A stretch of 64,000 bases of DNA from Candidatus Omnitrophota bacterium (lineage in GTDB: Bacteria; Omnitrophota; Gorgyraeia; Gygaellales; Profunditerraquicolaceae): NCBI GenBank assembly GCA_028715415.1, contig JAQURX010000001.1:154584-218583 (forward strand), in the 5' to 3' direction. Under the pieces are notes generated by a model, which searched no databases, was not told the DNA's origin, and was given only the letters and a program-made list of their open reading frames with translations. The position numbers and the translations under genes are program-made. Positions 25,370 to 63,987 of the stretch are shown here, one piece after another. Every line of letters starts with the position of its first letter. The first letter of the stretch is position 1.

Positions 25370-25385
25370 CCACACATTTGTGTGG
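25370..25385 (-). promoter_or_regulatory. Candidate LexA operator (perfect palindrome)
   Basis: CCACACATTTGTGTGG, 14-29 bp upstream of the proposed lexA start. Confidence 0.5.
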
Positions 25386-31418: not shown

Positions 31419-35373
<3,955 letters not shown>

Positions 35374-35382
35374 TTATTTTTT

Positions 35383-36867: not shown

Positions 36868-36877
36868 AATTAGAGGT

Positions 36878-37597: not shown

Positions 37598-37599
37598 AG

Positions 37600-37821
37600 T
37601 TATTTAAATAGGTTAAAAACAACCAAAAGTGCAATAATAGCAATTGCTTCAGCAAAAATAAACGCGATAATCATTGAGATGAGGATTTTTGGGGCTGCTG
37701 AGGGGTTTCTCCCTACAGCTTTTACTGCAGCATAACCGATAATGCCAATTACAGCCGCGGGCCCAAGTGTGCTTAAAAACATGATTAAGGCAATCGTGAA
37801 ATTACGCATATTCCTCCACAA
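37600..37821 (-). CDS. atpE: Fo ATP synthase c subunit
   Basis: Two-helix hairpin with the conserved carboxylate (FIFAEAIAII) and GxGxGxG-like N-helix packing. Confidence 0.8.
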   Translation of the reverse strand: MWRNMRNFTIALIMFLSTLGPAAVIGIIGYAAVKAVGRNPSAAPKILISMIIAFIFAEAIAIIALLVVFNLFK

Positions 37822-38047
37822 GTATTGTTAAATCGTTTCTTGACATTTTAGCAACGCCATATTTTATCATTATACGATTTTCTTTAAGAGGATCTAGTCT
37901 TAGCGTAACAAACCCGCTTCTTAGACGGCATAAAAAAGGCTGATGGAAATCTAAAACTGTAAGCTCTCCGTCTTCTCCGGGCAAGACAGCTTCTTTTATA
38001 TTTCCCTCAAAAATGATTTTTCTTGTATCCATTAACGAAACATTCAT
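37802..38047 (-). CDS. atpC: F1 epsilon subunit, N-terminal beta-sandwich only (no C-terminal helical hairpin)
   Basis: AVLPGEDGELTVLDFHQPFLCRLRSGFVTL matches the epsilon beta-sandwich motifs. 81 aa. It is the first gene of the operon. Confidence 0.6.
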   Translation of the reverse strand: MNVSLMDTRKIIFEGNIKEAVLPGEDGELTVLDFHQPFLCRLRSGFVTLRLDPLKENRIMIKYGVAKMSRNDLTILVEEYA

Positions 38048-39799: not shown

Positions 39800-42700
39800 T
39801 TATTTATACTCATACCAAGTCTGCGTGACTGGTTTATTGGCAATATTATCCACCATTTTCTTATTTAATTCAAGCGTTGCTTTTAATTCTTGAGACTTAT
39901 TCTTTAAATAATCAATATCATTCTTTTTCTCAGCAGTGACCTGATATAGTTTTTCTAGATTAACTCCTGCATCTCCGGAAATCTGCTTGATTTCTTTTGA
40001 TACGCTCTTTAACTGGCTGTAAATTGAGTCTAACACGTTAGCAGATGCAGCTGCATCTTTAACATCTTTTACTAGGCTCTTGCCTAATTGTGAGAGCGCT
40101 GTTTCAATTAAGGAGAACTGAGTTTTTAAGTTGTCTGCAACATCTCTTAAGGTTGAGATGCTTGAAGTAGCCCCCATGACCGATGCAACGTTTCCGGCTA
40201 TTTGTTCAAGGTCAGCTTTGATTACTGAGATGATCATAGCATCCACCGTTCCGTAAGTAGCCTCAGAGCAAACTATTGTAAAGTCTCCTTTGCCCCATCC
40301 ACCATCGAATAAGACAGGGAACTCGTATATAGCTACTTCAGAAGTAGAACTGCTAGTTATCGGTTTCATATTTCCGGTTAAAACTAATTTGTTTTCTGCA
40401 TCATAGACTTGAATAGTTGGCTGAACGCCGGTATATGAACGGAAGCGGATAACCAAATCTTTTGTTGAACGAATAGTGTTATCTCTATTAAGAATTTCAG
40501 ATTTTTTAATTGTAGTTACTTCTTTTTGAATCGTTTGTACTGCTGGAACGATTGTGCTCGTAGTCGTAGATAATATCTGTGAAGTATCACTCTTGACAGA
40601 GGCAACTTGAGTATCTATTTTATCTTCAATTGACTTCTTAGCTTTACCTACTTTATCCGCAATGTCATCAACCTTTGTTTCAATTGTTGTTGCTGACTGT
40701 TGTAAGCTTGTTAGTTGTGAAGTTTGCTGTGCTTGTTCAACAGCCTGTGAAATATCTATTGAGGCTCCTGAAGTATATTGTCCTGCACTGTAGTTAATAA
40801 TTGCTTTTACGAAATAATGTTTTCCTGTGGCTAAACCGGTAGCTTGCCAATTAAACCAGAATATGCCTTTATTGTCACGATAATATAAGCTTCCCATTCC
40901 AGGTTCAGTAGTAGATAATGTTTTTACTAAGGTTCCATTATCATAGATTTCCAAGGTAGCTGATTTGAGGTCGTTTAAAATTTGTTGTTTGATTGTATCA
41001 CTGTCAGAATCAGATGGCCCCATTAATTTTCCTCTTCTCTCTAACCATGTGGAAGCTCTTAGTGTGTCTGTAGCTGGATTATAGCTGGTTGATAATAAAA
41101 CGTGCCATTCAACCTGAGCGCTTATTTCATTTTCAAGAAGAACTGTTTGTATTGTATCACCATCAGCGCGCCAATCAGCTGCGCGTGCAATGTAGCCTTT
41201 TTTGGACCATCTGGTAATATAATTTCCAGCTGGGTAGTCCCTAGTTTGAGGTGAAGATAAAAGAACAGCGTTAATGTTCGTAATATCAACTAACCATCCG
41301 GTTTGGTCTTCTTTTACTCCTAATTCGTCCAAATGTCCATGTGTATCGTAGTCAACAACGTCCCAAGTGATATGGTAATAGTCTGCTTTGAATTCAGGAG
41401 ATTCAATAAAAACTGTAGGATCATTTGCATTGGTTATTTTAAATCTACAGTGTTCACTCCTTGGTTCCGGAATTGTCATATTGCATTGGCCTGCTGTAGC
41501 GCCAGTATTATTGATTGTTACGGTTTTAGTATTATCCCATGAGGTACCATTAAAATATTCAAATATAACCTGTGAGATACTGCCTTTTGTAGTCCAAGTA
41601 AACGTCTCTGTTTTTCCTACGATCTTTCTCTTTTGAGCTTCGGTATCTAAGTTAGTGATTACGAAAGCACCTTTAAACCTTATATCATTTGTTGAGCTAG
41701 CAGTAATATCGGCCCTTTCGTTGTTATTTTGGTCAATCATTGTTACTTTGATGCGTATTTTGCGGCTAATTAATACATCATTTGGAATCGTCCAAGAGAA
41801 ACTATTAGTTTGGTTAGGTGCACAGTCAATAGTAGCAATAGGATATGTGATTGCAGGAGTATCTGATTCAAAATATGAAAGGCGTACTTTATTCAAGGAT
41901 AAGCCTTTTGTTCTCCACTGAATAGGAAGTATTTCTCCAACCTCATATTCTGTTTTTGCTTCTGTTCCTAAAGGAGCAATTAGTTCAAGAGCTGGCTTAG
42001 GAAGAATAATTACGCTCTTTAGTTCAGACTTGACCTTTAAGTTTAGAGGGCCATAATTTGATAAGCCGTCCTTAGCTATTAGCTGAATTGGAATTTCTGG
42101 TTGGCCTTGTCTGCCTAATAAAGAGAATAAATCAGGTATTCCTGTTCCTCCAGGTCCGGCCCATGTGTATGAACCCATACCAGCCACATTGTCATTAGGT
42201 AAACCAAAGGCAATAGAAGTAAATGAGCCGTCCGGCGGGGTCGCTGAAGTATCAACGGTATATTGCAAAGCAATACTGTCAGGGTTGATGTAACCTTCAG
42301 TAGTCCATGTTATTGTTGGCTTCTCTCCAACTGCCCAATATACTCCTGTGCCAGAAGGATATGTAAGATTTATAAGCGGAATACCTATTTCAAAGATTTC
42401 TTCGTTGCTTGTTTCCCCAAAGGCGTTAGGTTCATCGGATTTCCACTTAACGTTATCAGTTATCAAGATTTTACAATTATTAGATGGAATGGTATTCTTC
42501 TGAATATCCCAAAGGAAAGTCCCTGTGTTGCTTAAATGAAGAGCAACAGGTGAACCGTCTTTATTAAGAATATCTTCATAAGGCCCTCCATTAACTGAAT
42601 ATTGAATTCTTAAGTCGTTGTGTGTAACTCCTCCATTATCATGCCAAAGAATAGGGTATTGTTTTCCTATGCGTAGGCAGTTTGTGCCTCTTTGTACATG

Positions 42701-45700
42701 GTTTGGTGAGTCTATGAATAACTGTGGTTTAGGAAGCACAATAAATGGTTGTTCAGTGTCTCCAAATACTTTGTAGTTTGTGCCTGCTCCTAATCCCCAA
42801 TAAATATCGTTAACTCTTACTTTTACTAACCCTTGAGCTTCAAGTGGCAAAGTCCAATTTATCGAGGTAGTTGTTGGCCCCCAATATTCAGGATGACCTG
42901 GATCATATGGGACTGGTGGATTAATAGTTTGACTAGTTATAAAATTATCTTTTGACCATTGGACTATGAAAGGTCCTCTTAATTTACCAAGCGAAGTCCA
43001 ATTGATAGTTCTAGTTTCTGTTACTGTCCATGGCTGGTTGCCATCAATTCTGGAGACTGTTATTACAGGGTATAGGATAGAGAATAGCTTTGATTCTCTT
43101 TTGTATTCCGTTGGTATGCTTGGCAATTCTATAGGCCTTTTAATTACTATATAGGCGGTTCCTGGAGAATAGGTGTCACCTACTGTCCAGTCAAAAGAAC
43201 CTTCAGAATTCAATGGCCCGCCAGTATCAATGTTATGCCAATTTGTTCCATCAGTATAAGTTAGCACAACTCCATCTGGAATGTAACCTGCTGTAGTCCA
43301 TTGAATTGTGTAAGTATCACCCATGTATAGAGTTTCAGAAGCAGCATCCGGATTCGGTTTAATAAAAACAAGCACAGGCTTACCAACTCTGAAATTAATT
43401 TCTTTAGATGCGCCTGAACCTCCATCTGCTATTGGGTCATAAATTCTGATAGTTGCTTTATCATTTTGATCATCAGGATCGTTAGGTAAAGCATCAGTTG
43501 GGACCATCCAGTCAAAACTCCCCTGGTCTGTATCTAGAATGCTGGAGCTTGTAATGGGGTTGTGAATAGCAGTGAATTCGTTGTTCGTTCTATTTCTCCA
43601 TTCAAAAACCAGTTTCTTAATTGCTTTTTGTGCTCCTCCAGTTGTTTGCCAAGATATTGGATGGCCTGTTGTTCCGACGACCCATGAGTCGTTTGTAGTC
43701 GGAGAAACAATAGTTATCGTTGGTTTTGTAATTGTAAAGTTGCTATTTGATGGATCGGATACATCCTCGGGTAGCCAAGAAGTATCAACAATTTTTAGTT
43801 TAACTTGCTGCAAGGAGTTTTGTCCTTCAGGAACGATATCTCTTGGAACTTGCCATGGAAGCGTGCATTGTGAATAACCAACCTCATCTACTTTTACAAT
43901 ATCCCCATTATTAAGGTTAGTTATTTTTATCCATGAGCCTGCGGCTCCACCGTTAGTTGAGTAATAGAATTCCAAAGAGTCATTTTTGATGGCTCCGATA
44001 TTGCGCCATACAATATTATGGGTTCCATGAGCATACCAAGTTTCTGTGCCATTTGGAACTTGTAAAGCTATGTGTGGAGTACCGAAGCTTAGTTTTCCGG
44101 ATAAACCAGATACTTTTGGTGTAGAAGTAGGAGAATCTTTAATTTCGACTTTTATATAGGCATTAAAAGTTTGTGTTGTTGGAATTTGGAGATATGTTGA
44201 ACCAGTATTATCTATTGCTGCTAGAGGACAAGTCCAAGGCCCATTCTCTCCGGCTGTTGAATAATAAATGTATGTTTTACCTGAATAATCAGGCCCGGGT
44301 GTACCTCCAATCTTAATAAAGTTATTACCGAAAGTTTCCCATTTGATTTCATATATTTTACCCATAGTTAAGGTTGCGCCGTCAGTTTGGTCAGGCGGGC
44401 TAATGATGTTTAATTTTGGCAGATTAAGGATTTCAAATGGCCCTACAGAAGTTTGAGGCTTTCCTTGTAGGGTGGTTGTGCTCCCGTTTTCTCCTTCATC
44501 TGTTATTCTTAACCAAACATTTTCACCAACAGCTTCAAGAGGAATATTTGTCCATGTATATTTTCGCTCTACATTTGAAACATCGCTATCGATAGTTGTC
44601 CAGGTGCCGTTAATTCCATTAGTTGAATCAATAGAATAGTCAATTTTTAGATAGTTACTTATTGTTCCGCTTGTGCTCCATTCAATAATATTGGTGTCTC
44701 CCTTAACCCATTTTGTAATAAAAGGAGATGGTGAGCTTATGCTTATTGTAGGTTTGTTTACATAGAAATCAATAGATTCTCCGGTACAAGGATTACTTTC
44801 AATTGTTCTTGCCCCATTTTGAGCAACTCTATTAGACAATGCCGTGCCAATAACCTGAACTCTGACAGGTAAGTCTATTCTTGGAGGAATTGCATCTAAA
44901 GGAACAGTCCATGTATAGCTTCCAATCGTAGAAGAATTTGGAGTAGGTCCGACAGTACCTATAGGAATAGGAGTAGGAGTAATATCTCCATAAGAGGTTT
45001 CTTCAGCTGCGTTATATTTTAGATATTTTAGAGTAACATTAGGCCCAAACATTTTTTGGTTCGTTGCCCAGTTAATTACTAATGGCTCTCCTGCTCTTAT
45101 TGCTGTTAAGCCTTGCGGAAGAGTTACGGTAATATTAGGGGCTGGAACAATGGCAAATGATCCGTTTAGGGTATCAATTATGGTTGCTCCTACGCTATCC
45201 CAATATTTCCCCGCGTCTACAGGTGAGAATATTTTAATCTGGCATTCATTGGATATTGTTGCAGGTATAGCCCAGCTTTTGTTTCCGCTGGCAGCGTCTA
45301 AGTTTGCACCAATAAATGTCCAGGTAGAAAAGACGTTTTGAGCGTTTTTATATCTATAATATATTGAAAGAGGATGTATTTCTTTTCCCGGAGGTAAAGG
45401 CGGTAATCCATAAACATCCCAGAGAATGAAGTTTTCTTTCCCTGCTTCCCAGATATCGCCGTTTATCGGAGAGGTTAATTTTAATGACAGGACTCTTAAG
45501 TCTGTTGGAGAATCCGCGACAATGTGGTCAAAATCATTAGAAGTTATTCTTATGCGAGATTGCTCTGAAAGAATTAAAGGAATAGTTGTCGCATCCGAAG
45601 GCACTGTCCATGTCAATAAACCATTGTTGGGTGCGTTTTCGGCGATTGTATAGTAATCATTTTTATCTAGACGATGAAGTTGAATTTTAACCGTGTTAGT

Positions 45701-48700
45701 TGCTCCATTAATTCCATCAGAATTCCAGGTTAGATCATAAGTAGAGCCAATATTTAAAATAGATACAGCTGCTCCGGTAGAGTTTAATTTTACAGCATTA
45801 ACTGTAAGATAAGGGTTCACATATTCAATAACTAAGTTATTTAATACAGGTTTTTCCTGGCCGTCAGAATACAGTATTGCTTTGTATTGAAGGTATCTGG
45901 TGTTATGCGCTTCTGTATGGGCTGAATTAATAATTGTATAATAATCCGGTAGCTTAGAGTATGCTGGGTTAACTGGGGTAGAGCCGGTTTGATCGGTATA
46001 GAAGGTTAAGTCTCCTCCGAGAGTTACACTAGCTGAAGCTAATCTTGGAGTAGCTTTTCCGTCTCTAGAATGTAAAAATGCGCGGTAATAAAAATCTCCG
46101 GAATTAAAACCCGCAATATCTCGTTGGAATACGGTTAATCTTGCAGGAGTGATTTCTGTGGCGAGATTGGCTTGGGCATATCCGCCAGTTGTGGCTAATT
46201 GCCAAGCTGCCCCTGTCCAGTAATACCACTGCCATCCGTCGCGGGAAATCTGGTATTTAATTTCAAGTTCATCGCCTGTTCCCGAAGGTATGTCTTTTAC
46301 CGGATTAAACGAATCAATCTTGACTCCCTTATTTAAGTTGAAATCATAATTGTAGTATACGCCCATTACCGGTTGAATGCATGGGTTATCAGTGGAATAT
46401 CCATAGTTAACATTTGAGTAGTCTTGTTCGCTCATATAGGTTAAAGATTGGATTATGTCTGTAGCAGTTCCAAAGTTATAATTACTTCTGACTTCCTCTT
46501 GTGTTAAAGCTCTGTTATAAAAACGAACTTCATCAAGCCTTCCGTTTAAATAGCCCCACGAACTGCCAAAAGTATTACCAGAAGTGTAGCCGTTAGCAAA
46601 GCCCAGGCCTAGAGGAGCATTAGTATTTAATGCGTATTTTGCTCCAGATCTTGAATTAACCAGTCTGCCGTCTAAATACATTTTAGAATTGCGTTGGAAA
46701 GCCTGGGCTGTGTTTCCGTTATAAATCACTGACAAATGGTGCCAAGTGTTTAAGGAAGGCAAAGTTGTGCTAATCGTGTATTCAGTGCCATCTTTACAAC
46801 CTAAGTAGAAATATAAATAGCCATATGCGCTTCTTACAAAGAATCCCCAGTATCTGCCGTTTAAGTCGTTATAATAATCGGCTTTTCCAATTAGAACTCC
46901 CGGTTTATTGCTTTTTAACAAGAACCATAAATCAACTGTAAAGTCTGTGTTAAAGTTTTGTTCACTGTTTGGAGGAGATACTATTGAACCGAAGTTATCT
47001 GCTTGGGGTATTGAGCCATACGTATTGATTCCATTAAGGTTTAAACAGTTGCCAACCTTGCCCGGCAGCCATGAGCCATTTACTATTCCTTCGGTTGAGC
47101 CGGTGTATATTTTACCGTTATTTAGAGTATCTTCAGAAGAATCTTTTACTAATGTTGAATTCCCCTGTCCGTCTTCAAAAGACCAATATCCAATTAAATT
47201 AGTAGCATTAATAAAGTTATTCAATGAAAAATTAGGTGAAGCAGCGCTAAGGTTACCATAATAAAGATATATTCGTTGTGTATTCTTAAAAGAAAGCAAA
47301 TAAGGTATTTTGAGATAGAAAGAAGCGGTTTTATTTACGGAATCAAAACTGATAACCTTATATTTAAGTTCTTGATATCCGTCAGAAAATCTTAAGTCTG
47401 CTCCATCCGGGCGAGCCTGATTATTAGTAACGCGTTGCCAAAAAGTCGGATTGCTTGAAAGGTCCATTTTCACTAATCCTACCCAATCTTTTCTATCCTG
47501 TAAACATGAATATGAGATTTCAATCGGTTGCCTGTATGACCAGCCGCTGGTAAATAAGGAAATCTGATTAGAGTTTGTATCTACTGTGGAAGTAGGGTTT
47601 GGTGAAACATATTTATGGAATTCTTTGTGAGCTTGAATTTCAATTTGAGTTAAGGCTTTATCGTAAAGCCGAACTTCATCCATTATACCGTTAAAACAGA
47701 GGTTGCCCGCCGTATCTGCGCTTAGCCAGAAATTGGTACTATTTGAAATATCTCCTAATGGGTTGCTGCCGCTTACTAAATTAAATGCAGCTCCGTTTGG
47801 CAAGCCATCAACGAAAAATCTTCCTGTATTAGTGCTGCCATCTCTTGTGATTACCAATGCGATGTGATGCATATTGCCATCATTTATGTTGTTTGGGCCG
47901 ATAGATGAGATTATATTAGTTCCGTCATACATTTTAAGTGCGGGCCTACCTTGTTCAACACCAAATACAAATCCTTTGGTTGAATCGTATTTTCTTGCAA
48001 TTGTTCCATATAATGCAGAGGTTTGGATCCAAGCTTCAAGGCTAAAGCTTTGGTTAAAATCAAAGTCTTCCCAATCGCGGTTTAGAATTGTTCCATACCC
48101 TTCGCAATCAACATATTGATTTATCCCATTAAAGCTTAAGGCTTTTCCAATTTTTCCCGTAACCCAAGGAGAGTTATTATATAATCTTCCAGAATTCTTC
48201 CCTGTTACATCTATGATTGTATTTCCCGCACCTTCTTCAAAATCCCAATAAGCAATTAAATTAGCGCTATCTTTGTGAACATCCATTGTGCGGCTAAAGT
48301 TGCTTTCTGCGTCTATAATTTTATTTCCATAATACATTTTTATGTTGGTTATGCCTGTAGGCAGCGTCGGCATATTTACCCAGATTACTGCGTTATTGGA
48401 AGGGTGCCTATATCCTCCATATGTAAATGATTCAATGTAATATTCTAATCTTTCTCCGTTTGCATCAACAAACTTGATGTCATCTCCTTTGATCTGAGCG
48501 TAATCCCAGTAATTATACAAAGAACTGTTGATATTTACACGGACTTGATAACTATCCAGTTCATCTCCTGTATTATTTATCTGAATATTCTTCCAGTAAA
48601 AAGCAGGTTTTGTTATTACTGCTCCTCCAGTTGGGGCCAGATTGATGTTTTTGTCCATTGCATAGTCAACTACATTAGTAAAATCGTAATTAAATATTTG

Positions 48701-51700
48701 GCTGGTTAGTGATGGTCCTTTCCATTCTCCCCAGCTTATGCCATCAGTAGAAGATCTTAATTGGAATCTAACATCGGTTCCGGGCAATAAGCTTTCGCCC
48801 CAGTTTACCTTTAAGGCTCTGCTATTATCTGAGCCTAAGTTATAAGTGTTTGAAGTAATCTCTTGTTGGGCAACCGGGTATCGTGTGTAGTCTAGTTCAA
48901 GTTTGTGCAAGATTGGTACTTCGGTACTGTTGTTGCTGCTAAAGTTGAATTTATATTGGACGTATTTATCTTTTGATTTTGCAGAAGCAGCGCTATTTAT
49001 ATTAGCTGTATATTTAGTCATGCCATCAACTACTTGGGGTGCCGAAATCTGCCTAAGGTCTATAGTTTTACTCCAGGCAGTCGCGTTACTCATGTTAGAT
49101 TTATCGCTTGTCCTTATGGATGGGCTTATTGATTGCAGGCCATTTGTAAACCATCTAAATTGCCCCCAGTCCGCATGTTTTCCAATTTCTTTTACGCTTG
49201 ATATATAATCACCAAATGAAAAGGCGTATAGTTTTAAGAAATCATATCTGCTTTGCCCTCTTAATGCATAGAAATATTTTCCTCCAGGGCAGGCCAGGGT
49301 TCCGGGAGCTTTTATTCCAACCGGTAAATTAGAGAATTCTGACCAGGTATTATTCACGAAATCGTATCTTAATACAACAGAAGAAGAATAATCTTGGTTA
49401 TAGTTTGTGCCTTGTAAGACATAAAAGTAATTTCCAAATCCCGGATAAATTAATTTACTGTTGTTATTATAAAATACCGCAGGAGCAAGTGCGAATTCTC
49501 CCCAGGCAGCGGGCCCGGCAAGATTATCTTTTGTAGTGTCAAATTTATATATCGTTGGAGAATTTGCGCCTCGCATTACCCATATGTAATTACCAGAGCC
49601 CGGATAAACCATACTAGCTCCCCAGCCTATTGTATCTGGGGTTGTGCTAAATAATGTCTGCCAGCTGTCATTTATCAAGTTGTATTTTAATACCGTTGTA
49701 TTACCGCTGGGCAATGCATAAATAGAGTCGTCTTTCCATACTAAGGAAGCGCCATAACTCCATGATACCGGAGAAGATCTTTTGCTTTCCCATGTATTAT
49801 CTGCTATTGAATAACGGTAAAAACCAGTTGAACTGACTCCTTGTGCAACATATATATAAGCGTTTCCTTGGAATTCTGCTATTGTCATAACAGGTGACCA
49901 GTTGCTTAAGTCAAAATTCGGGGTTTCCAAATTATCCCATATATCCGTTTCTGTATTATAGCGTAAAAGTTTTGTTCCCGAGCCTGTATAGTTTAATACA
50001 AAGACGTATCCTTTGTAACCAATTGCAGCGCTTCTGTAGCTTAATAGTTCTGGAATCCCTTGAGGTTCGTTCCATTTGTTATCATTTGGAGAATAGCAGT
50101 AAAAACGGTCATATTGAGGATTGTAAACATAAAGCATTTCTTTTGTTCCTCCCTGTCCGTCATCTACTGTTGCTGATACGATTGAATGGGCTGAACCATT
50201 AGAGTCAGTATTGTTAAAGGGTAGTTTAGCTATGTTTTCCCATTGTTTTGAAGTGTCTGCTTCATTAAAGTTATAACGCATTAAATAAGACGCAGGGTCT
50301 CTTGGGATACAATAAAGATATCGTCCATCATCTGGCGATGTTGAGTAAAAGAGAACTGCGCCAGTGTTTGCTACCACAGCTTCATTGTCTACGGAAATCA
50401 TACTCTGGGAAGAAATGTTTGAAGTTGGGTTAGGCATACTCATTTCAAAGAAATTTGTGTCAGTTTTATCTGGGTTAACGAAGAAGAGCCTTGGTAAACC
50501 ATCTTTGTTAAGGCCATATGTTAAAACATTGCTTCTGTAGAAATTTTGAGTAAAAGGTAAGGTCATGATTTCAGACCAGTTTCCGGAAACAGTATCAAAT
50601 TCGTAGAATTTATTTCTATTTGTTTTAAAGTTGCCCACTCCGGCAAAGAACAATGATTTTCTTTCGGGGCAATATATAATTTGAGTTCCAAGGGCAAAAG
50701 TTTCCGGGCAGCTGTTTGCAGTAAGGCTCCATGTTTTAGTGTTTAAATTATATTTATATAATTTATTTGTGATCCTGCCTCCAGTTGCATAGATTGTGCC
50801 TAAATCTCCTTGTGTACTGCTTGGTACATACTCTATTTTGGAGCCATTAATTTTAAAAGGAGTGCGGATAATATCTGCCCAGCGCCCCTTAGCAACAGAA
50901 TACACCCAAATTATATCTGTAAGAGTATTAGTTGCGTAAGGGCCATAACAAACATAAATATTTTTTTGGCTATCAATTGCTGTATTCCCCGTGCGATATC
51001 CTCCCATAGGTGTATAATCCATTAATGGGTCGCTCCATGCAGAAGCGAATAGATCACCGGAATTTACAAAATCAAAATCAAACTTATAGAATGATGGGTC
51101 TGGGTATGGAAGTGTATACAAACCTTTGTAATCACCTGTTGCTACATGGCAAAGTCCCATGCGATATTGGGAAAATGGAGTAGCCCCGGCAGAGGTCTTG
51201 ATTAGTTCGTTCCATGTTCCTTGAATGTCCCCAAGAGAGCCGGCTTCCAGGCAATATCTAGCCCAGGTAAAGCCGTGTTGTTCGTCGGCATGTCCGGAGA
51301 AAGCATAGATGTATTTTCCTTTGGTTCCTAAATCAACGTAGGTTAAACTGTTTCCTCCTGAGTAACAGGCCAAATAAACCGGAGAATCTGCCAATCTCTC
51401 CCAAGTATTAGTGGTAATGTCATATCTATAGAGTATGTAACTATCTCCATTTGTAGCGTAAATATATTGTCCACTACCCGGGTAAACTAAGTTTGTCCCC
51501 GGGGTAAAATACGGCCAAGTTGTTGGAGGGCTCGCCGGTGCTAAGTTAACCCATCCATTAGTAGTATCAAAGCGATAAAAGTCTCTTGTTCGGGAATTAG
51601 AGCTCCATTGAGTGCTCCAGTTTGTACCTCGGGTTGCATATATATAAGGAATATCCATATTTGGTGTGCCTACAGATGCAGGAACGCCAACAATACAAGA

Positions 51701-53341
51701 ACCCGCTTCTTCATAAAATATATCAGGATCTATGCCATCGCTTGCAGAATAATTAGGCCTTTGTGCTTCAGGAAAATTGGCTAAAGTATTCCATACGTCA
51801 GATCCCGGTGTTTGTCCGATTGCATAACGATAAAAACCATTTGAACTATTTCCCGGGAAAAGATAAATATAATCAGTGTTGTTATCTCTTAAATAAGCCA
51901 TTTTATTGCCTGATTCGGCTACTGTAGCAGGAGTAGAGGCCAAATTTTCCCATTTATTATTAGACAGGCTGTAGCGATAAAATTTACGTTGATTTCCGGA
52001 TGGGGCATAATAAATATAGTCGCCAAAACCCGGGTAAAACATGTTTAGGTTTCTTGAATCTGTTTTATATGGTGGCGCGCAGAGCGTATTCCATCTACCC
52101 GTTGCAGTATTAAAACTCCATGGTTTTATATAGTTATAACCGGAAAAGAAAAAAGCATCTCCTGTTGAGTCGGATTGATTTGAGGTATCCGCATAGTACA
52201 TGATTGCTTTATAATTGCTTTTATCTGCAGGAAGCTCTGGAAGCTGTTCCCAATCAGCAGAGCTGTTTGTGTAATCCAGCCTGTAGAAGGTTCTGTAATT
52301 CGTGACATTGTAATCATAACCACCGTCCCCTCTGAGGGTAGCAGTTCTATAGGCGCTGTTAACATAGATATATTTTCCTCTGCCGGGATAATAGAAACCA
52401 GAGTAGCTTGATATTACGTTGTCAAAAGTGTTATTTTGATAAGGCAGCGTCTTTCCTGTTCCCCATGAGTTATCTACTAAATTAAATTTATATATAGATT
52501 TATTTGCGTTTCCTGGAGTGCAGTAAATATACTGGCTTCCTTGAGGATATAATAATGTTCCTCCGTAATTTACATTAAGATCAAGTGAGGTTGAGGTGGA
52601 CCAGTTAGTGCCTCCTACTGAGAGGTCGTATTTCATAAATTTAATGGTTTCTCCACCTATAGTTGCAAATAGCTTAGGAGTGGGATTGAATTGGTTTTGT
52701 TCAACATAAACAATACTCGCCCCCCAGCCGGCAGGCGCTAATAATTTTGCTAACAATACCCACTCGCCTAAGGGGTGTTCGCCATTTGGTAGTGTATAGG
52801 TATATGTTTCAAATGTACCACCTCCGCGGATGGCAAAAATTTTAGTTCCATCAGTGGCCATACTTACTCCAAGCCCCGCAGCAGCTGGTAAAGGCTCAAG
52901 CATCTCCCATTTCCCGTTAACAATATTGTATCTGCCAAAGTATCTACCATCACTTTCTCCGAATATGCAATATACGTATTCGTTAAGTTTTACATAAGCT
53001 GAATACAGCCCCGGTTGAGGTAAAGAATGAAGTGCTGACCAGTCTCCAAGATTCGTAAATGCATCTTTAGTCTCAATTTTAAGCTTTAAACCGGTTGCGC
53101 CATTCTTTTCAACGTTATTAAGAGTTCCATTAAAATCAGCAGAGCTCGTATCGGTTTTAGTAAATGTGTCAGCTAAAAGGGAAACATTGTTTCCTGTTGA
53201 GATATTGCTGGTTTTAGAAGAATAGCTTCCAGCAGGCCAGGATGATTGTGTTACAGTGGCAGCTTTGACATCTGAGAAAATACCGATTTGGCCAAAAATC
53301 AAAGCTTCTGCAAGAATTATTCTTAAGATTTTATTGAACAT
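39800..53341 (-). CDS. Giant secreted multidomain protein (4,513 aa): signal peptide, about 25 Kelch-like beta-propeller blades, 2 LamG/ConA-like domains, about 16 tandem Ig-like beta-sandwich repeats, coiled-coil C-terminus
   Basis: Single uninterrupted ORF with RBS GGAGG. Signal peptide MFNKILRIILAEALIFGQIGIFSDVKA. Recurring xYIYaxxGxxxxxFYRYdxxxNtW blade pattern. LamG signatures (AYWDFEEG...MDEVRLYDKALT and GYWSFEDG...LDEVRFYNRALT). Repeats ending ...s(F/Y)(T/D)W(T/M)VP.DA. Confidence 0.9.
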   Translation of the reverse strand: MFNKILRIILAEALIFGQIGIFSDVKAATVTQSSWPAGSYSSKTSNISTGNNVSLLADTFTKTDTSSADFNGTLNNVEKNGATGLKLKIETKDAFTNLGDWSALHSLPQPGLYSAYVKLNEYVYCIFGESDGRYFGRYNIVNGKWEMLEPLPAAAGLGVSMATDGTKIFAIRGGGTFETYTYTLPNGEHPLGEWVLLAKLLAPAGWGASIVYVEQNQFNPTPKLFATIGGETIKFMKYDLSVGGTNWSTSTSLDLNVNYGGTLLYPQGSQYIYCTPGNANKSIYKFNLVDNSWGTGKTLPYQNNTFDNVISSYSGFYYPGRGKYIYVNSAYRTATLRGDGGYDYNVTNYRTFYRLDYTNSSADWEQLPELPADKSNYKAIMYYADTSNQSDSTGDAFFFSGYNYIKPWSFNTATGRWNTLCAPPYKTDSRNLNMFYPGFGDYIYYAPSGNQRKFYRYSLSNNKWENLASTPATVAESGNKMAYLRDNNTDYIYLFPGNSSNGFYRYAIGQTPGSDVWNTLANFPEAQRPNYSASDGIDPDIFYEEAGSCIVGVPASVGTPNMDIPYIYATRGTNWSTQWSSNSRTRDFYRFDTTNGWVNLAPASPPTTWPYFTPGTNLVYPGSGQYIYATNGDSYILYRYDITTNTWERLADSPVYLACYSGGNSLTYVDLGTKGKYIYAFSGHADEQHGFTWARYCLEAGSLGDIQGTWNELIKTSAGATPFSQYRMGLCHVATGDYKGLYTLPYPDPSFYKFDFDFVNSGDLFASAWSDPLMDYTPMGGYRTGNTAIDSQKNIYVCYGPYATNTLTDIIWVYSVAKGRWADIIRTPFKINGSKIEYVPSSTQGDLGTIYATGGRITNKLYKYNLNTKTWSLTANSCPETFALGTQIIYCPERKSLFFAGVGNFKTNRNKFYEFDTVSGNWSEIMTLPFTQNFYRSNVLTYGLNKDGLPRLFFVNPDKTDTNFFEMSMPNPTSNISSQSMISVDNEAVVANTGAVLFYSTSPDDGRYLYCIPRDPASYLMRYNFNEADTSKQWENIAKLPFNNTDSNGSAHSIVSATVDDGQGGTKEMLYVYNPQYDRFYCYSPNDNKWNEPQGIPELLSYRSAAIGYKGYVFVLNYTGSGTKLLRYNTETDIWDNLETPNFDLSNWSPVMTIAEFQGNAYIYVAQGVSSTGFYRYSIADNTWESKRSSPVSWSYGASLVWKDDSIYALPSGNTTVLKYNLINDSWQTLFSTTPDTIGWGASMVYPGSGNYIWVMRGANSPTIYKFDTTKDNLAGPAAWGEFALAPAVFYNNNSKLIYPGFGNYFYVLQGTNYNQDYSSSVVLRYDFVNNTWSEFSNLPVGIKAPGTLACPGGKYFYALRGQSRYDFLKLYAFSFGDYISSVKEIGKHADWGQFRWFTNGLQSISPSIRTSDKSNMSNATAWSKTIDLRQISAPQVVDGMTKYTANINSAASAKSKDKYVQYKFNFSSNNSTEVPILHKLELDYTRYPVAQQEITSNTYNLGSDNSRALKVNWGESLLPGTDVRFQLRSSTDGISWGEWKGPSLTSQIFNYDFTNVVDYAMDKNINLAPTGGAVITKPAFYWKNIQINNTGDELDSYQVRVNINSSLYNYWDYAQIKGDDIKFVDANGERLEYYIESFTYGGYRHPSNNAVIWVNMPTLPTGITNIKMYYGNKIIDAESNFSRTMDVHKDSANLIAYWDFEEGAGNTIIDVTGKNSGRLYNNSPWVTGKIGKALSFNGINQYVDCEGYGTILNRDWEDFDFNQSFSLEAWIQTSALYGTIARKYDSTKGFVFGVEQGRPALKMYDGTNIISSIGPNNINDGNMHHIALVITRDGSTNTGRFFVDGLPNGAAFNLVSGSNPLGDISNSTNFWLSADTAGNLCFNGIMDEVRLYDKALTQIEIQAHKEFHKYVSPNPTSTVDTNSNQISLFTSGWSYRQPIEISYSCLQDRKDWVGLVKMDLSSNPTFWQRVTNNQARPDGADLRFSDGYQELKYKVISFDSVNKTASFYLKIPYLLSFKNTQRIYLYYGNLSAASPNFSLNNFINATNLIGYWSFEDGQGNSTLVKDSSEDTLNNGKIYTGSTEGIVNGSWLPGKVGNCLNLNGINTYGSIPQADNFGSIVSPPNSEQNFNTDFTVDLWFLLKSNKPGVLIGKADYYNDLNGRYWGFFVRSAYGYLYFYLGCKDGTEYTISTTLPSLNTWHHLSVIYNGNTAQAFQRNSKMYLDGRLVNSRSGAKYALNTNAPLGLGFANGYTSGNTFGSSWGYLNGRLDEVRFYNRALTQEEVRSNYNFGTATDIIQSLTYMSEQDYSNVNYGYSTDNPCIQPVMGVYYNYDFNLNKGVKIDSFNPVKDIPSGTGDELEIKYQISRDGWQWYYWTGAAWQLATTGGYAQANLATEITPARLTVFQRDIAGFNSGDFYYRAFLHSRDGKATPRLASASVTLGGDLTFYTDQTGSTPVNPAYSKLPDYYTIINSAHTEAHNTRYLQYKAILYSDGQEKPVLNNLVIEYVNPYLTVNAVKLNSTGAAVSILNIGSTYDLTWNSDGINGATNTVKIQLHRLDKNDYYTIAENAPNNGLLTWTVPSDATTIPLILSEQSRIRITSNDFDHIVADSPTDLRVLSLKLTSPINGDIWEAGKENFILWDVYGLPPLPPGKEIHPLSIYYRYKNAQNVFSTWTFIGANLDAASGNKSWAIPATISNECQIKIFSPVDAGKYWDSVGATIIDTLNGSFAIVPAPNITVTLPQGLTAIRAGEPLVINWATNQKMFGPNVTLKYLKYNAAEETSYGDITPTPIPIGTVGPTPNSSTIGSYTWTVPLDAIPPRIDLPVRVQVIGTALSNRVAQNGARTIESNPCTGESIDFYVNKPTISISSPSPFITKWVKGDTNIIEWSTSGTISNYLKIDYSIDSTNGINGTWTTIDSDVSNVERKYTWTNIPLEAVGENVWLRITDEGENGSTTTLQGKPQTSVGPFEILNLPKLNIISPPDQTDGATLTMGKIYEIKWETFGNNFIKIGGTPGPDYSGKTYIYYSTAGENGPWTCPLAAIDNTGSTYLQIPTTQTFNAYIKVEIKDSPTSTPKVSGLSGKLSFGTPHIALQVPNGTETWYAHGTHNIVWRNIGAIKNDSLEFYYSTNGGAAGSWIKITNLNNGDIVKVDEVGYSQCTLPWQVPRDIVPEGQNSLQQVKLKIVDTSWLPEDVSDPSNSNFTITKPTITIVSPTTNDSWVVGTTGHPISWQTTGGAQKAIKKLVFEWRNRTNNEFTAIHNPITSSSILDTDQGSFDWMVPTDALPNDPDDQNDKATIRIYDPIADGGSGASKEINFRVGKPVLVFIKPNPDAASETLYMGDTYTIQWTTAGYIPDGVVLTYTDGTNWHNIDTGGPLNSEGSFDWTVGDTYSPGTAYIVIKRPIELPSIPTEYKRESKLFSILYPVITVSRIDGNQPWTVTETRTINWTSLGKLRGPFIVQWSKDNFITSQTINPPVPYDPGHPEYWGPTTTSINWTLPLEAQGLVKVRVNDIYWGLGAGTNYKVFGDTEQPFIVLPKPQLFIDSPNHVQRGTNCLRIGKQYPILWHDNGGVTHNDLRIQYSVNGGPYEDILNKDGSPVALHLSNTGTFLWDIQKNTIPSNNCKILITDNVKWKSDEPNAFGETSNEEIFEIGIPLINLTYPSGTGVYWAVGEKPTITWTTEGYINPDSIALQYTVDTSATPPDGSFTSIAFGLPNDNVAGMGSYTWAGPGGTGIPDLFSLLGRQGQPEIPIQLIAKDGLSNYGPLNLKVKSELKSVIILPKPALELIAPLGTEAKTEYEVGEILPIQWRTKGLSLNKVRLSYFESDTPAITYPIATIDCAPNQTNSFSWTIPNDVLISRKIRIKVTMIDQNNNERADITASSTNDIRFKGAFVITNLDTEAQKRKIVGKTETFTWTTKGSISQVIFEYFNGTSWDNTKTVTINNTGATAGQCNMTIPEPRSEHCRFKITNANDPTVFIESPEFKADYYHITWDVVDYDTHGHLDELGVKEDQTGWLVDITNINAVLLSSPQTRDYPAGNYITRWSKKGYIARAADWRADGDTIQTVLLENEISAQVEWHVLLSTSYNPATDTLRASTWLERRGKLMGPSDSDSDTIKQQILNDLKSATLEIYDNGTLVKTLSTTEPGMGSLYYRDNKGIFWFNWQATGLATGKHYFVKAIINYSAGQYTSGASIDISQAVEQAQQTSQLTSLQQSATTIETKVDDIADKVGKAKKSIEDKIDTQVASVKSDTSQILSTTTSTIVPAVQTIQKEVTTIKKSEILNRDNTIRSTKDLVIRFRSYTGVQPTIQVYDAENKLVLTGNMKPITSSSTSEVAIYEFPVLFDGGWGKGDFTIVCSEATYGTVDAMIISVIKADLEQIAGNVASVMGATSSISTLRDVADNLKTQFSLIETALSQLGKSLVKDVKDAAASANVLDSIYSQLKSVSKEIKQISGDAGVNLEKLYQVTAEKKNDIDYLKNKSQELKATLELNKKMVDNIANKPVTQTWYEYK

Positions 53342-53390: not shown

Positions 53391-54398
53391 TTATTTATTT
53401 GGCACATTAAGTTTTTCCTCAAGCTGTTTTGTTTTTTCTTTTTCAATCGCAAGCCTTCTTTGCATGGCTTCCAAAGAAACTTTATCAGCGCGGTATTTCT
53501 CATCCAAATTCTTTATTATAACTGAGTTTTCATGTGCTAGTTTAAGGTTAATTTCACCTTGTTTCTTAAGCATCTCTTTTTGAAGATTTCTTTTAAGATT
53601 AAAAGTGACTTGAGAAAAGTATACAGATATAAAGATCAGTGCTATTACTGATAAAGCCCCAGTAACAAGAAAGAACCTTTTTTTTCTTTTAAATTCCGCA
53701 TCAGGTATAGAGCTATCAATTTCAGATTTATATTTTTCAACTTCAAGTTCAACTTTTTCTATAAAACCGTTTGTGCCAAGTACTGTCTTTTTATTGAGCT
53801 CTTTATTAATAAAACCACTTCTATCTAAAGAAAATTCTTTGATAAATTCTTGATGATCTTTATTTTTTAGATATTTTTTAGTTTCTTCAATTTCACTTGA
53901 GATATTAATGTCTAAACTTGGTTTACCTAAATAATTAGCGAAACTACAATAAGGATAAAGTTCCGGCTCTTTAACAATATTTAGGATTTTAGGATTAAGA
54001 TGAATATAGGAAGCAACCTCTAAAAGATGAGTTTCTTTTTCAACTAAAACCAGTTTAAACCTTTCTTGGAAAAGATGGCCTTTTCTTTCATATTTTGAAT
54101 TGAAATATTTTGTATAGTTTGCATTTAGGTCATGCATAATATCAGAAATTGTTAGTCCAGCTTTTAATTCAATCAATAAATGTAGATGGCTTGGGATCAG
54201 GCAGAAGGCGAATAATTTAAAACCATATTGTTCTTTATATTTCTTTAATAATTCAGCGTAGGTTTTATAATCTTGGACATCTCTAAAAATTTCTTCATTA
54301 TTATCACCGCGGCTTGTTACGTAGTATAGTGCGCCTTCAATAAATTTTTTAGGGACTTTAATCATTTTAAGCCACCTTTTCTTTTTAATGCGTTGCAT
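53391..54398 (-). CDS. IS200/RAYT-like Y1 HuH transposase-domain protein fused to a TM helix and C-terminal coiled coil
   Basis: N-terminal ~140 aa with Y1 motifs (YYVTSRG...FAFCLIPSHLHLLIEL and catalytic-Tyr region GHLFQERF...VASYIHLNPK). Then TM FFLVTGALSVIALIFISVYF and a coiled coil. Confidence 0.6.
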   Translation of the reverse strand: MQRIKKKRWLKMIKVPKKFIEGALYYVTSRGDNNEEIFRDVQDYKTYAELLKKYKEQYGFKLFAFCLIPSHLHLLIELKAGLTISDIMHDLNANYTKYFNSKYERKGHLFQERFKLVLVEKETHLLEVASYIHLNPKILNIVKEPELYPYCSFANYLGKPSLDINISSEIEETKKYLKNKDHQEFIKEFSLDRSGFINKELNKKTVLGTNGFIEKVELEVEKYKSEIDSSIPDAEFKRKKRFFLVTGALSVIALIFISVYFSQVTFNLKRNLQKEMLKKQGEINLKLAHENSVIIKNLDEKYRADKVSLEAMQRRLAIEKEKTKQLEEKLNVPNK

Positions 54399-54444
54399 TT
54401 TTATTGCAACGTTGGTTTATTGCGTGGTACTTTGCAATAATTTT

Positions 54445-54475
54445 AAAAAAAAATCCCAGGCATTTTACCTGGGAT
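54445..54475 (-). terminator. Intrinsic terminator forming the expression platform of the c-di-GMP riboswitch
   Basis: On the minus strand: AATCCCAGG-UAAAAUG-CCUGGGAUU followed by U9. Lies between the aptamer and the start codon at 54398. Confidence 0.75.
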
Positions 54476-54495
54476 TGGTTGTCTTAAGTTTCAAT

Positions 54496-54583
54496 CTTCG
54501 GTAATCTGCCTGTCCCGGAATTTTCCCGGGATGCACGACTTTGCGTCCCTTGATTACTCAAGGTTTGCCTTTTCGGATAAAGA
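54496..54583 (-). promoter_or_regulatory. Cyclic-di-GMP-I (GEMM) riboswitch aptamer
   Basis: Minus-strand RNA CCGAAAAGGCAAACC-UUGAGUAAUCAA-GGGACGCAAAGUC...CCCGGGAAAAUUCCGGGA-CAGGCAGAUUACCGAAG. Carries the two GEMM-I signature blocks (GGCAAACC and GGGACGCAAAG) flanking a GNRA-loop P2 hairpin, a P3 hairpin and the 3' UUACCGA.G element, as in V. cholerae Vc2. Confidence 0.8.
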
Positions 54584-54601
54584 GCATTAATTTCTACATT
54601 A

Positions 54602-54630
54602 AGTATACCATACGCTTGATTTCTTTTCAA
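54602..54630 (-). promoter_or_regulatory. Sigma-70-type promoter for the riboswitch-led transcript
   Basis: Minus strand TTGAAA-17 bp-TATACT, ~15 bp upstream of the aptamer. Confidence 0.55.
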
Positions 54631-54659
54631 GGTGCGTGGCATTTTATCTTTTTGAGGGG

Positions 54660-54986
54660 TTAATTTGCTTTTTTTTGTTGTATGATTTTAGCTTTTTCTG
54701 TTAGCTCTTCCATACGTTTTTTTTCAATTTCCAGCTCTTTATATGTATTTTCTAAAGAAGGTTTACTATTATTGTATTTTTCCGATAATTTCTTGGTTAA
54801 GATCTCTTTTTCTTGATTAAGCGCTACTTTGAAGTCATTCTCTATTATTAAGCTAGCTGACTTGATTTCCACCTTGATACGCGCCATTTCAATAACAAAA
54901 ATAGCTACAATTATTAGAAATACAACGAATAAAATCAGATAAAAATAGTGCAGAAACTTTAGCTTTGGCATATTTAGATTGGACAT
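54660..54986 (-). CDS. Small TM plus coiled-coil protein, paralogous to the C-terminal module of the 53391..54398 fusion
   Basis: TM helix. LSEKYNNSKPSLE...LEIEKKRMEELTEKA aligns with LDEKYRADKVSLE...LAIEKEKTKQLEEKL of the Y1 fusion protein. Confidence 0.4.
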   Translation of the reverse strand: MSNLNMPKLKFLHYFYLILFVVFLIIVAIFVIEMARIKVEIKSASLIIENDFKVALNQEKEILTKKLSEKYNNSKPSLENTYKELEIEKKRMEELTEKAKIIQQKKAN

Positions 54987-63073: not shown

Positions 63074-63436
63074 TTAATTACTTGGAATGAATTGATTGAT
63101 ATACTGCGAAATCTTCTTTTTTTGTGCTTCTTTTATTTCGTTAAAAAATATTGCTATGTTAAATCCGCCGGTTGAGTTATCCTCGGTTCTTACTAAAACA
63201 CCTTTGCATTCAACCGAATAGCTCTTACTGCCTTTACCAGTTGAGACTGGGAGCGTTAGTTTAATAGCCACTTTAGTAAATGGAGGAATATATTTATTAA
63301 TATGGCAATATGCGCCTACACAGCTGACATTTTGAGTGTCAGTTGTAAAATCATAGCCATTAACCGCTAGATTAATCGGCAAGCGGTGCGATAAACGAGG
63401 ATGTTCCCTTCGTTCTGATTTTCTTATCTTTGTCAT
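63074..63436 (-). CDS. PilZ-domain c-di-GMP-binding protein
   Basis: RxxxR (RREHPR) and (D/N)xSxxG (NVSCVG) motifs. The start is taken at internal Met MTKIRKSERR to avoid overlap with the upstream zinc-ribbon ORF. Confidence 0.55.
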   Translation of the reverse strand: MTKIRKSERREHPRLSHRLPINLAVNGYDFTTDTQNVSCVGAYCHINKYIPPFTKVAIKLTLPVSTGKGSKSYSVECKGVLVRTEDNSTGGFNIAIFFNEIKEAQKKKISQYINQFIPSN

Positions 63437-63438
63437 TT

Positions 63439-63624
63439 TTATTTCTTCTCTTCTTTTCCTTTTTTCAGGAAAGCGCTCCAGCATTTTTTGCTGCAGTAGT
63501 ATTTGCCGTTACGATAATATCTTTTTGTTTTTTTAATCGGTTTGTTGCAGCTTAAGCAATTAGTCTGCTTCTCTGCTTTTGGTTTTTCTTCTTGTGCTGG
63601 TGCGTTAGTTGGTGTTTCAGCCAT
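63439..63624 (-). CDS. Small Cys-rich zinc-ribbon protein
   Basis: CLSC...C..KC spacing. Lysine-rich. Confidence 0.35.
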   Translation of the reverse strand: MAETPTNAPAQEEKPKAEKQTNCLSCNKPIKKTKRYYRNGKYYCSKKCWSAFLKKGKEEKK

Positions 63625-63642: not shown

Positions 63643-63987
63643 TTAGATTTTGCCTAATTTTAGGTTTATGTATTCCGATAAATAATTCTTCTCAGCTGGG
63701 TCAATCTCAATAAATTCTATACCCAGCCTGTTTCTGTTTGAATGAGGCATAGGGGAAGAAAAAACTACACGACCCACAGGTCTTAATATTTTAGCAGCAA
63801 TTTCAATTTCTAACATTATCAGGTTTGAAGGAGCGATAAACAAATTGTTAATAAAACCAATTCCTCCAAGGCTGATATTGTCGCTTATGGCGTTATCAAA
63901 ATGTGTTGAACCGCGGATTTGATAGCGTAAAGGAGCGTGTAAACCAATCCTCTGGAACCGTCTTTTTTCCTCTTTTTGCTTCTCCAT
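63643..63987 (-). CDS. PilZ-domain c-di-GMP-binding protein
   Basis: RxxxR (RRFQR) and DNISLGG motifs. Confidence 0.6.
   Translation of the reverse strand: MEKQKEEKRRFQRIGLHAPLRYQIRGSTHFDNAISDNISLGGIGFINNLFIAPSNLIMLEIEIAAKILRPVGRVVFSSPMPHSNRNRLGIEFIEIDPAEKNYLSEYINLKLGKI

Follow-up and report, generated by a model that had tools for sequence, protein, structure and literature searches.

A predicted OFF-type c-di-GMP-I riboswitch ahead of a giant gene in Candidatus Omnitrophota

The Omnitrophota are uncultivated, ultra-small and probably host-dependent bacteria that encode the largest known proteins, and to our knowledge nothing is known about the regulation of their giant genes. This question is raised in concrete form by a 64,000-nucleotide (nt) stretch of contig JAQURX010000001.1 (hereafter the window, meaning the whole stretch analysed), the minus strand of which encodes a protein of 4,513 amino acids (aa) behind a leader in which a sequence-only reading had recognized a riboswitch for cyclic di-GMP (c-di-GMP). 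Here, we consider what this leader is, which genes it would control, and with which sign. In the reading that we consider likely, a transcription-terminating class-I c-di-GMP riboswitch of the OFF type, similar to Cd1 of C. difficile, heads a transcription unit of four genes, which encode a membrane protein resembling REP-associated tyrosine transposases (RAYT-like), the giant protein, a bitopic protein, and an MA-family metallopeptidase. The source organism is represented by a Candidatus Omnitrophota metagenome-assembled genome (MAG), as the product of the first gene is identical to P0001, annotated as Candidatus Omnitrophica/Omnitrophota MAG; the same gene is also present on a Logan contig from run SRR22315506.

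The whole window was scanned against Rfam with cmscan, and the leader was read as the minus strand of 54800..54300. A single riboswitch match was returned, the only other Rfam match being a tRNA. It belongs to the c-di-GMP-I family (RF01051, GEMM-I) and covers the full model well above the gathering score (coordinates and scores of all features are collected in Table 1), which bears out the class assigned by the sequence-only reading. For comparison, 79 loci (species-representative genomes, mostly Omnitrophota) were retrieved with a profile of the first-gene product, and on a covariance model built from 27 aligned homologous aptamers the window aptamer scores 91 bits. The P2 hairpin (54563..54548) is capped by GUAA, in agreement with the GNRA loop proposed earlier, and P3 occupies 54539..54503. 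RNAalifold on the 27 homologues yields the P2 and P3 helices with 21 pairs, 14 of which show compensatory changes, a covariation-consistent fold; in the register of P1, the homologues differ by 1 nt. The canonical 11-nt tetraloop receptor of P3 (CUAAG/UAUG) corresponds to gaps in the RF01051 alignment; the GUAA tetraloop is present and P3 has tandem C:G pairs, on which GUAA loops can dock. The leader as a whole folds better than 200 of 200 shuffles (z = -4.6). The element is almost certainly a c-di-GMP-I aptamer.

The positions G20, A47, and C92 (Vc2 numbering), which are named as ligand-contact positions in PMC11218506, correspond in the RF01051 and homologue alignments to G54569, A54542, and C54501, respectively. 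Among the 27 aligned homologues, A47 and C92 are invariant and G20 is nearly so (at least 90%), and we infer that the window aptamer binds c-di-GMP. It is very improbable that it senses another cyclic dinucleotide, either 3'3'-cyclic GMP-AMP (3'3'-cGAMP) or the ligand of the c-di-GMP-I-GGC variant. Several orthologous aptamers do pass the RF03167 model of that variant marginally, scoring slightly better there (59.7-61.3 vs a gathering threshold of 59), and G20 has been described as contributing to selectivity without being a strict filter (PMC9262584). However, the window aptamer scores best on RF01051, and the defining position of the variant, as taken from the Rfam RF03167 consensus, is a G at position 47 (GACGCGAAG, GACGC-G-AAG), whereas A is found there in the window aptamer and in each of the 27 aligned homologues. 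Because A occupies this position in all the Omnitrophota sequences, they are canonical G20/A47/C92 aptamers, and membership in c-di-GMP-I-GGC was rejected. A 3'3'-cGAMP riboswitch (GEMM-Ib) was likewise rejected, as it would need A at position 20, the key difference of aptamers of that type (PMC9481103), where the window has G54569. Also against another ligand, c-di-GMP receptors are encoded in the same locus, namely two PilZ proteins and the MshE-type N-terminal domain (MshEN) of a secretion/pilus ATPase.

Upstream of the aptamer, TTGAAA-17-TATACT is the top-scoring promoter of the leader region in a promoter scan, confirming the near-consensus sigma-70 promoter described earlier. Among 50 related leaders, 38 score at least 9 of 12 at the same distance from the aptamer, with a mean promoter score of 8.98 in related leaders vs 6.56 in control windows (p = 6e-8), and the -10 box reads TATACT in 21 of the 50. 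No second sigma-70 promoter was found by the scan between the terminator and the start codon.

The expression platform is of the terminator type, as had also been claimed, and the way in which it is coupled to the aptamer differs from what had been proposed. The terminator begins 22 nt 3' of the window aptamer; in the 44 related leaders analysed, this distance is 10-53 nt, and in none of them do terminator and aptamer overlap. When the Rfam aptamer is imposed on the fold, the complete terminator still forms, so the mutually exclusive pairing of P1 and terminator that had been suggested is not borne out by folding: both form together. The unconstrained minimum free energy (MFE) fold of the window leader is an antiterminator (-50.1 kcal/mol, vs -45.3 kcal/mol for aptamer plus terminator), in which the 3' strand of P3/P1 pairs with the 5' arm, loop, and start of the 3' arm of the terminator.

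Energy cost, duplex strength, and covariation show that this complementarity is designed rather than accidental. Forbidding the terminator costs a mean of 2.45 kcal/mol in real leaders vs 5.91 kcal/mol when the aptamer is dinucleotide-shuffled (Wilcoxon p = 1e-8), and in the window the cost is -0.6 kcal/mol vs 9.6±2.6 kcal/mol with a shuffled aptamer; the best terminator-free fold uses the aptamer 3' strand in 27 of the 44 leaders. Ungapped complement matching of the aptamer 3' strand was noisy owing to helix indels, and duplex folding was used instead, in which the optimal pairing of each aptamer 3' strand with the terminator of the same leader averaged -15.75 kcal/mol vs -8.45±2.85 kcal/mol for shuffled terminators. 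The antiterminator pairing covaries at three positions (7, 8, and 10). At the most informative of these, all eight leaders with A have an A-U pair, and the 29 leaders with G have G-C in 26 cases and G-U in three; an alignment of the spacer-trimmed platforms with MAFFT lost the register of the terminator 5' arm. The aptamer strand, GGCAGnYUGCC, is near-palindromic, so that a plain copy would look complementary too. Where the palindrome is broken (UACC, in the window and in loci L002, L019, L037, and L051), the terminator has the complement GGUA...UGCC and no copy.

Since the terminator does not overlap the aptamer and the antiterminator excludes it, ligand binding should promote termination, and the switch is quite probably of OFF polarity, with high c-di-GMP predicted to lead to termination. 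The same rule has been set out for characterized switches, in that the aptamer of the OFF switch Cd1 can form alongside the terminator, both in competition with an antiterminator, whereas in the ON switch pilM the two exclude each other (PMC9262584). The seven class-I switches that function in C. difficile all act as OFF terminators (PMC6366702). Under this scheme, transcription would start approximately 7-10 nt past TATACT, and the aptamer would fold first. Without c-di-GMP, the emerging segment 54477..54457 would invade the aptamer 3' strand (54512..54492), and the resulting antiterminator would consume the 5' arm and loop of the terminator together with the beginning of its 3' arm, allowing RNA polymerase to read into the operon. 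With c-di-GMP bound at G54569, A54542, and C54501, the 3' strand would be locked in P3/P1, the terminator hairpin and its U9 tract would form, and transcription would stop about 80 nt before the start codon, such that high c-di-GMP would repress the giant-protein operon. The switching decision is probably kinetic, as the antiterminator can form before the terminator 3' arm is complete. In equilibrium folding, the terminator probability of the window rises from 0.57 to 0.93 upon sequestration of the aptamer 3' strand. The claim of riboswitch control over the giant protein thus stands for the riboswitch and its targets and falls for the mechanism and sign, the antiterminator predicting an OFF switch.

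The opposite polarity, in which c-di-GMP blocks the terminator and high c-di-GMP induces the giant surface protein in a manner similar to LapA/CdrA or Bc2, is improbable. Class-I ON switches do exist, for example Bc2 of B. thuringiensis before a collagen adhesin (PMC6366702); induction would fit the c-di-GMP-activated MshEN ATPase in the same locus, and the terminator is the equilibrium default in many relatives, as in ON switches. An ON switch, however, needs nucleotides common to terminator and aptamer, whereas the two are separated here by the gap given above and fold together in the window and its relatives. Only one alternative pairing is both conserved and covarying, and it abolishes the terminator at the cost of the aptamer; no fold was found in which the bound aptamer blocks the terminator.

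Several observations nevertheless weigh against a Cd1-like OFF switch heading this unit. The best terminator-free fold does without the aptamer 3' strand in 17 of the 44 leaders, and the covariation counts, having been taken from optimised duplexes of related sequences, do not represent independent events. Sequestration of the 3' strand raises the probability of the terminator in just 16 of 43 leaders, and in the majority the terminator prevails in both states (median 0.92 vs 0.95), which makes equilibrium folding ambiguous in many relatives, and in the window itself the energy gap is small, at about 0.6-5 kcal/mol depending on the boundaries. Ligand binding and polarity are predictions only. 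A conserved leader motif flanks the switch, so other inputs may dominate, and, should the giant protein be the cargo of the MshEN ATPase, an OFF sign fits poorly with an enzyme of a type that c-di-GMP usually activates. Finally, no convincing terminator was found down to 28000, leaving the 3' end of the transcription unit undefined.

Some of these points would suit a largely ligand-insensitive attenuator with a constitutive ('locked OFF') terminator, in which read-through is set by, for example, a protein on the AAAGTRCCASGCA leader motif. We regard this as unlikely. In most relatives, a stable terminator is predicted whether or not the aptamer strand is sequestered, Bc1 has been reported as 'locked OFF' (PMC11218506), the leader motif is tightly linked to the module, and one locus (L038) retains promoter, terminator, and motif despite having lost the aptamer interior. 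On the other hand, strong purifying selection acts on the aptamer, which shows compensatory changes and a pocket conserved across about 50 loci, and the antiterminator covaries; a ligand-blind element would not maintain such aptamer constraint or antiterminator covariation. Furthermore, the antiterminator of Cd1 is likewise just transiently stable and yet works kinetically (PMC9262584).

The cargo of the predicted OFF switch begins with the RAYT-like gene. Its start codon is ATG 54365, preceded 7 nt upstream by a ribosome-binding site (RBS), AAGGUGG, at 54378..54372, and the 324-aa product is 100% identical to P0001; the start had previously been placed at 54398, the first ATG of the frame and 33 nt away, so the terminator lies about 80 nt from the start codon and not about 50 nt. 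The product matches Pfam Y1_Tnp (PF01797) at 56.3 bits vs a cutoff of 23 and reaches 77.4 bits on the NCBIfam model REP_Tyr_transpos, the equivalog of REP-associated tyrosine transposases, with a cutoff of 80, and therefore falls within the superfamily and outside the equivalog. A direct phmmer search of the product against the PDB gave no match; the family profile alone reached 4ER8 (E. coli TnpA_REP, E 3e-4), with H60-L-H62 and Y120 aligned to the HMH and to the Y of DYIYINP. Three of 25 family members have His in place of this tyrosine, so that catalysis may not be essential to the family. A KRKKR sequence precedes the hydrophobic segment, the C-terminal coiled coil is conserved, and more than 3,000 homologues exist, mostly in Omnitrophota. 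Directly upstream of the riboswitch on the same strand, a 108-aa open reading frame (ORF, 54986..54660) encodes a transmembrane (TM) segment and a coiled coil. It is a paralogue of the TM and coiled-coil tail of the first-gene product (30% identity over 88 aa, E 9e-8), so that the Y1-like protein resembles a fusion of an HUH domain with this module.

The genes that follow are as previously described, namely a Y1-TM-coiled-coil protein, the giant gene with its own RBS, a bitopic protein with an acidic tail, and an HExxH protein. The gap between the first gene and the giant gene is 49 nt, a scan found no terminator in it, and the next two gaps are shorter still (11 and 22 nt). Consistent with the earlier placement of the switch ahead of both genes, and with an association with giant genes that is conserved in relatives, it is highly probable that the giant gene is co-transcribed behind the switch; co-transcription of all four genes, as well as the biological role of the unit, we infer. 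Anchoring of the giant protein through a PEP-CTERM motif was considered and rejected, its C-terminus being without such a motif, and the 275-aa bitopic protein has no Pfam or NCBIfam match.

The arrangement is shared by related genomes. With the covariance model of the 27 aptamers, an aptamer was found immediately 5' of the orthologous Y1-like gene in about 50 Omnitrophota loci, and Rfam confirmed it in 11 of 14 loci tested; the same search did not find the aptamer in the distant, non-Omnitrophota Y1 homologues (loci L066-L079). The full module of promoter, aptamer, and terminator precedes the RAYT-like membrane protein gene in about 50 related loci. In 31 of the 36 related loci with at least 4 kb of downstream DNA, a same-strand open frame of at least 1,000 aa follows, most of these frames running off the fetched DNA. 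Thirty of the 36 downstream large ORFs are homologous to the giant protein of the window, the closest being collinear with it from the N-terminus. The position of the module varies, as it lies 3' of the Y1-like gene and directly before small ORFs and a large gene in L031 (7544..7632), L046 (1542..1684), and L023 (9545..9632), and 3' of the Y1-like gene before a signal-peptide ORF of at least 378 aa in L015 (4791..4885). Two tandem riboswitch-Y1 units occur in L045 (5788..5874 and 8054..8141), and the decayed module of L038 (approximately 4870..5070) has an intact promoter, terminator, and motif and a deleted aptamer interior (AAGGGCAAAC|TGCCCGA). The regulated cargo is thus the large secreted protein in most of these placements. 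In a sub-clade of five loci (L035, L040, L041, L044, and L057), the aptamer 3' end is divergent, with GGUUGCUAG taking the place of CCGA, the terminator differs (ACCAGCC...GGCUGGU), and the spacer has an element, GCAGCUAAC, whose sequence is complementary to the aptamer strand; these leaders represent an alternative wiring of the same switch.

Among characterized systems, the closest counterpart is Cd1 (Cdi-1-3), located upstream of the 23-kb flgB operon of C. difficile. It shares with the window switch its aptamer class, a transcriptional OFF design, the coexistence of aptamer and terminator, and an antiterminator that uses the aptamer 3' strand (PMC9262584). Both gate a very long multi-gene operon (PMC6366702), and the antiterminator is marginal or transient in both. 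They differ in phylum and in cargo, which is flagellar in Cd1 and consists of the RAYT-like and giant secreted proteins here; in the window, moreover, the antiterminator 3' strand is formed by the upper stem and loop of the terminator itself, an extra conserved motif stands on both sides, and the switch is only predicted. A second C. difficile system, zmpI (CD2830), in which a c-di-GMP-I OFF switch turns down a secreted zinc metalloprotease that targets surface adhesins (PMC6366702), is similar in that the last gene of the present operon likewise encodes a metallopeptidase, of the HExxH MA family, a likeness that does not imply processing of the giant protein by this peptidase. In C. difficile the adhesins have class-II ON switches of their own, whereas here one predicted OFF switch precedes the genes of both the large protein and the peptidase. 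Class-I switches directly before genes of large surface or adhesion proteins are also represented by Bc2/Cap (collagen adhesion protein, Bacillus thuringiensis) and Vc1/gbpA (Vibrio cholerae), although Bc2 is an ON switch (PMC6366702) and the window element is predicted to be OFF. Cd1/flgB, zmpI, and Bc2/Cap have already established the aptamer class, OFF switching through a terminator, and riboswitch control of long operons or of genes for surface proteins and proteases.

A comparison with LapA/LapD/LapG and CdrA of Pseudomonas, to which the logic of this locus had been likened, holds in so far as a giant surface adhesin is under c-di-GMP control. In LapA/CdrA-type control, high c-di-GMP favours adhesin display. 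The control there is exerted at the protein level (LapD/LapG proteolysis) and by FleQ on transcription and is positive, whereas here it is at the RNA level and predicted to be negative, so that the analogy fails on mechanism and probably also on sign.

In Omnitrophota themselves, giant secreted proteins flanked by machinery resembling type II secretion systems and type IV pili (T2SS/T4P) and by small pilZ genes have been described, and a link to c-di-GMP was suggested (West-Roberts et al. 2023, bioRxiv 10.1101/2023.11.21.568195). The window has the same layout as those loci, with a protein of 4,513 aa that is smaller than their giants of at least 30,000 aa. Neither a riboswitch nor a RAYT-like gene is mentioned in that study or in the 2026 survey of complete Omnitrophota genomes, and literature searches on riboswitches in Omnitrophota/Omnitrophica returned nothing relevant. 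The phylum-wide placement of the switch before the giant genes and their RAYT-like partner thus appears to be new. The riboswitch offers a first concrete regulatory handle on Omnitrophota giant genes, with an RNA that can be synthesised and tested in vitro without cultivation; it ties the earlier PilZ and GGDEF hints in giant-gene loci to a defined mechanism, and its predicted sign implies that the giant protein would be made in the low-c-di-GMP state. Two further elements travel with the switch, namely the membrane-anchored RAYT-like protein and the conserved leader motif.

The minus-strand block in which the switch is embedded is a T2SS/T4P-like locus. It comprises two PilZ proteins (earlier noted on this strand, and both above the cutoff), an ExeA-like AAA ATPase, a secretin, three TPR proteins, the 108-aa TM and coiled-coil protein, the riboswitch, the Y1_Tnp protein, the 4,513-aa protein, the 275-aa bitopic protein, the Peptidase_MA_2 protein, F1-type ATPase genes, a GspE/PilB ATPase with an MshE-type N-domain, GspF, PilM/N, PilO, and pseudopilins. 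Because the GspE/PilB ATPase has an MshE-type c-di-GMP-binding domain, c-di-GMP also acts on the locus at the protein level, which constitutes a second input with a sign possibly opposite to that of the riboswitch; in the proposed scheme, c-di-GMP could act on this ATPase and on the PilZ proteins in parallel with the RNA.

The leader motif (AAAGTRCCASGCA, 12-14 nt) matches the window twice vs 0.54 matches expected by chance, once abutting the -35 box and once between the terminator and the RBS. It accompanies the riboswitch in about 30 related loci, with 1-3 copies that bracket the module or lie 3' of the terminator, typically 10-20 nt past the U-tract (examples are 2089 and 2304 in L004, 5672 and 5932 in L017, and 5645 and 5931 in L018), and nearly all exact matches in 850 kb of loci fall within about 250 nt of an aptamer. 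In many loci it is partly palindromic (GTGCC-W-GGCAC) and stands 5' of the Y1-like gene; in the clade of the window it is not palindromic. Its sequence as a putative HUH-domain site is AAAGTACCACGCAA, and it could be an operator or a site resembling a repetitive extragenic palindrome (REP) for the adjacent RAYT-like/HUH protein. As a sigma-54 promoter it was rejected, the GG-to-GC spacing, read by eye, being 8 and not 10, and the window copies being without the GG.

A more ambitious reading would join these elements into a phylum-wide, inverse two-tier c-di-GMP circuit together with an HUH protein that binds the REP-like AAAGTRCCASGCA motif bracketing the cassette, a joint claim that we consider doubtful. 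If such a circuit exists, low c-di-GMP would permit read-through, and the giant (putative prey-attachment) protein and its RAYT-like partner would be made, while a rise in c-di-GMP would halt transcription and at the same time activate the MshEN secretion/pilus ATPase and the PilZ proteins. Binding of the motif by the HUH protein, if real, would add a protein input or explain the variable position of the cassette, which is found before or after the HUH gene, duplicated, or decayed.

Table 1. Positions of the leader elements and of genes of the locus in the 64,000-nt window.
Feature	Position	Strand	Evidence or remark
Sigma-70-type promoter: TTGAAA (54630..54625), 17-nt spacer, TATACT (54607..54602), extended -10 TG	54602..54630	-	10/12 matches
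c-di-GMP-I (GEMM-I) aptamer	54579..54497	-	RF01051, 66.1 bits vs gathering score 35, E 1e-10, model 1-87 of 87
Antiterminator 5' strand CAGGCA..UUACC..GAUUG (aptamer P3/P1 3' strand)	54492..54512	-	Free MFE
Antiterminator 3' strand CAAUC..GGUAA..UGCCUG (terminator 5' arm, loop, start of 3' arm)	54457..54477	-	Free MFE
Intrinsic terminator, 11-bp stem AAUCCCAGGUA/UGCCUGGGAUU, AAA loop, U9 tract	54445..54476 (hairpin 54476..54452, U9 54453..54445)	-	Hairpin -15.6 kcal/mol
First gene, 324-aa protein: RAYT-like HUH (Y1) domain, one predicted TM segment (~residues 229-250), C-terminal coiled coil	53391..54365	-	Pfam, NCBIfam, family profile
Giant gene, 4,513-aa protein: N-terminal signal-peptide-like sequence, Kelch, DUF2341, and LamG domains, GGGAGG RBS	39800..53341	-	ORF and domain searches
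275-aa protein: signal sequence, one TM segment, acidic C-terminal tail	38961..39788	-	11-nt gap after giant gene
278-aa Peptidase_MA_2 (HExxH) metallopeptidase	38102..38938	-	54.8 bits vs cutoff 32.4; 22-nt gap
Single-domain PilZ proteins, two	63484..63074 and 63987..63643	-	38.4 and 37.9 bits vs cutoff 22.5
GspE/PilB-type ATPase, MshE-type c-di-GMP-binding N-terminal domain	33092..31419	-	Pfam T2SSE and MshEN; NF053729 64.1 bits vs cutoff 38
Leader motif, upstream copy AAATGCCACGCA, abutting -35 box	54633..54644	-	Motif search
Leader motif, downstream copy AAGTACCACGCA, between terminator and RBS	54421..54432	-	Motif search
8-bp hairpin ACGUUGCA-AUAAAAA-UGCAACGC in the 5' untranslated region just before the RBS; contains in-frame, probably unused ATG 54398	54390..54412	-	Seen as plus-strand inverted repeat

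Two further features of the block are recorded here. The F1-type ATPase genes (38047..33089, minus strand) sit between the giant-gene operon and the MshE-like secretion ATPase and follow an uncommon arrangement, namely epsilon (81 aa, with the N-domain alone), b/delta fusion, alpha, gamma, and beta, with neither an a nor a c subunit gene adjacent. At the end of the pilus/secretion block (25377..23290, minus strand), a gene for the LexA repressor, a small ORF, and a gene for a Y-family (ImpB/MucB/DinB-type) polymerase lie in this order and form a cassette of the SOS mutagenesis type.

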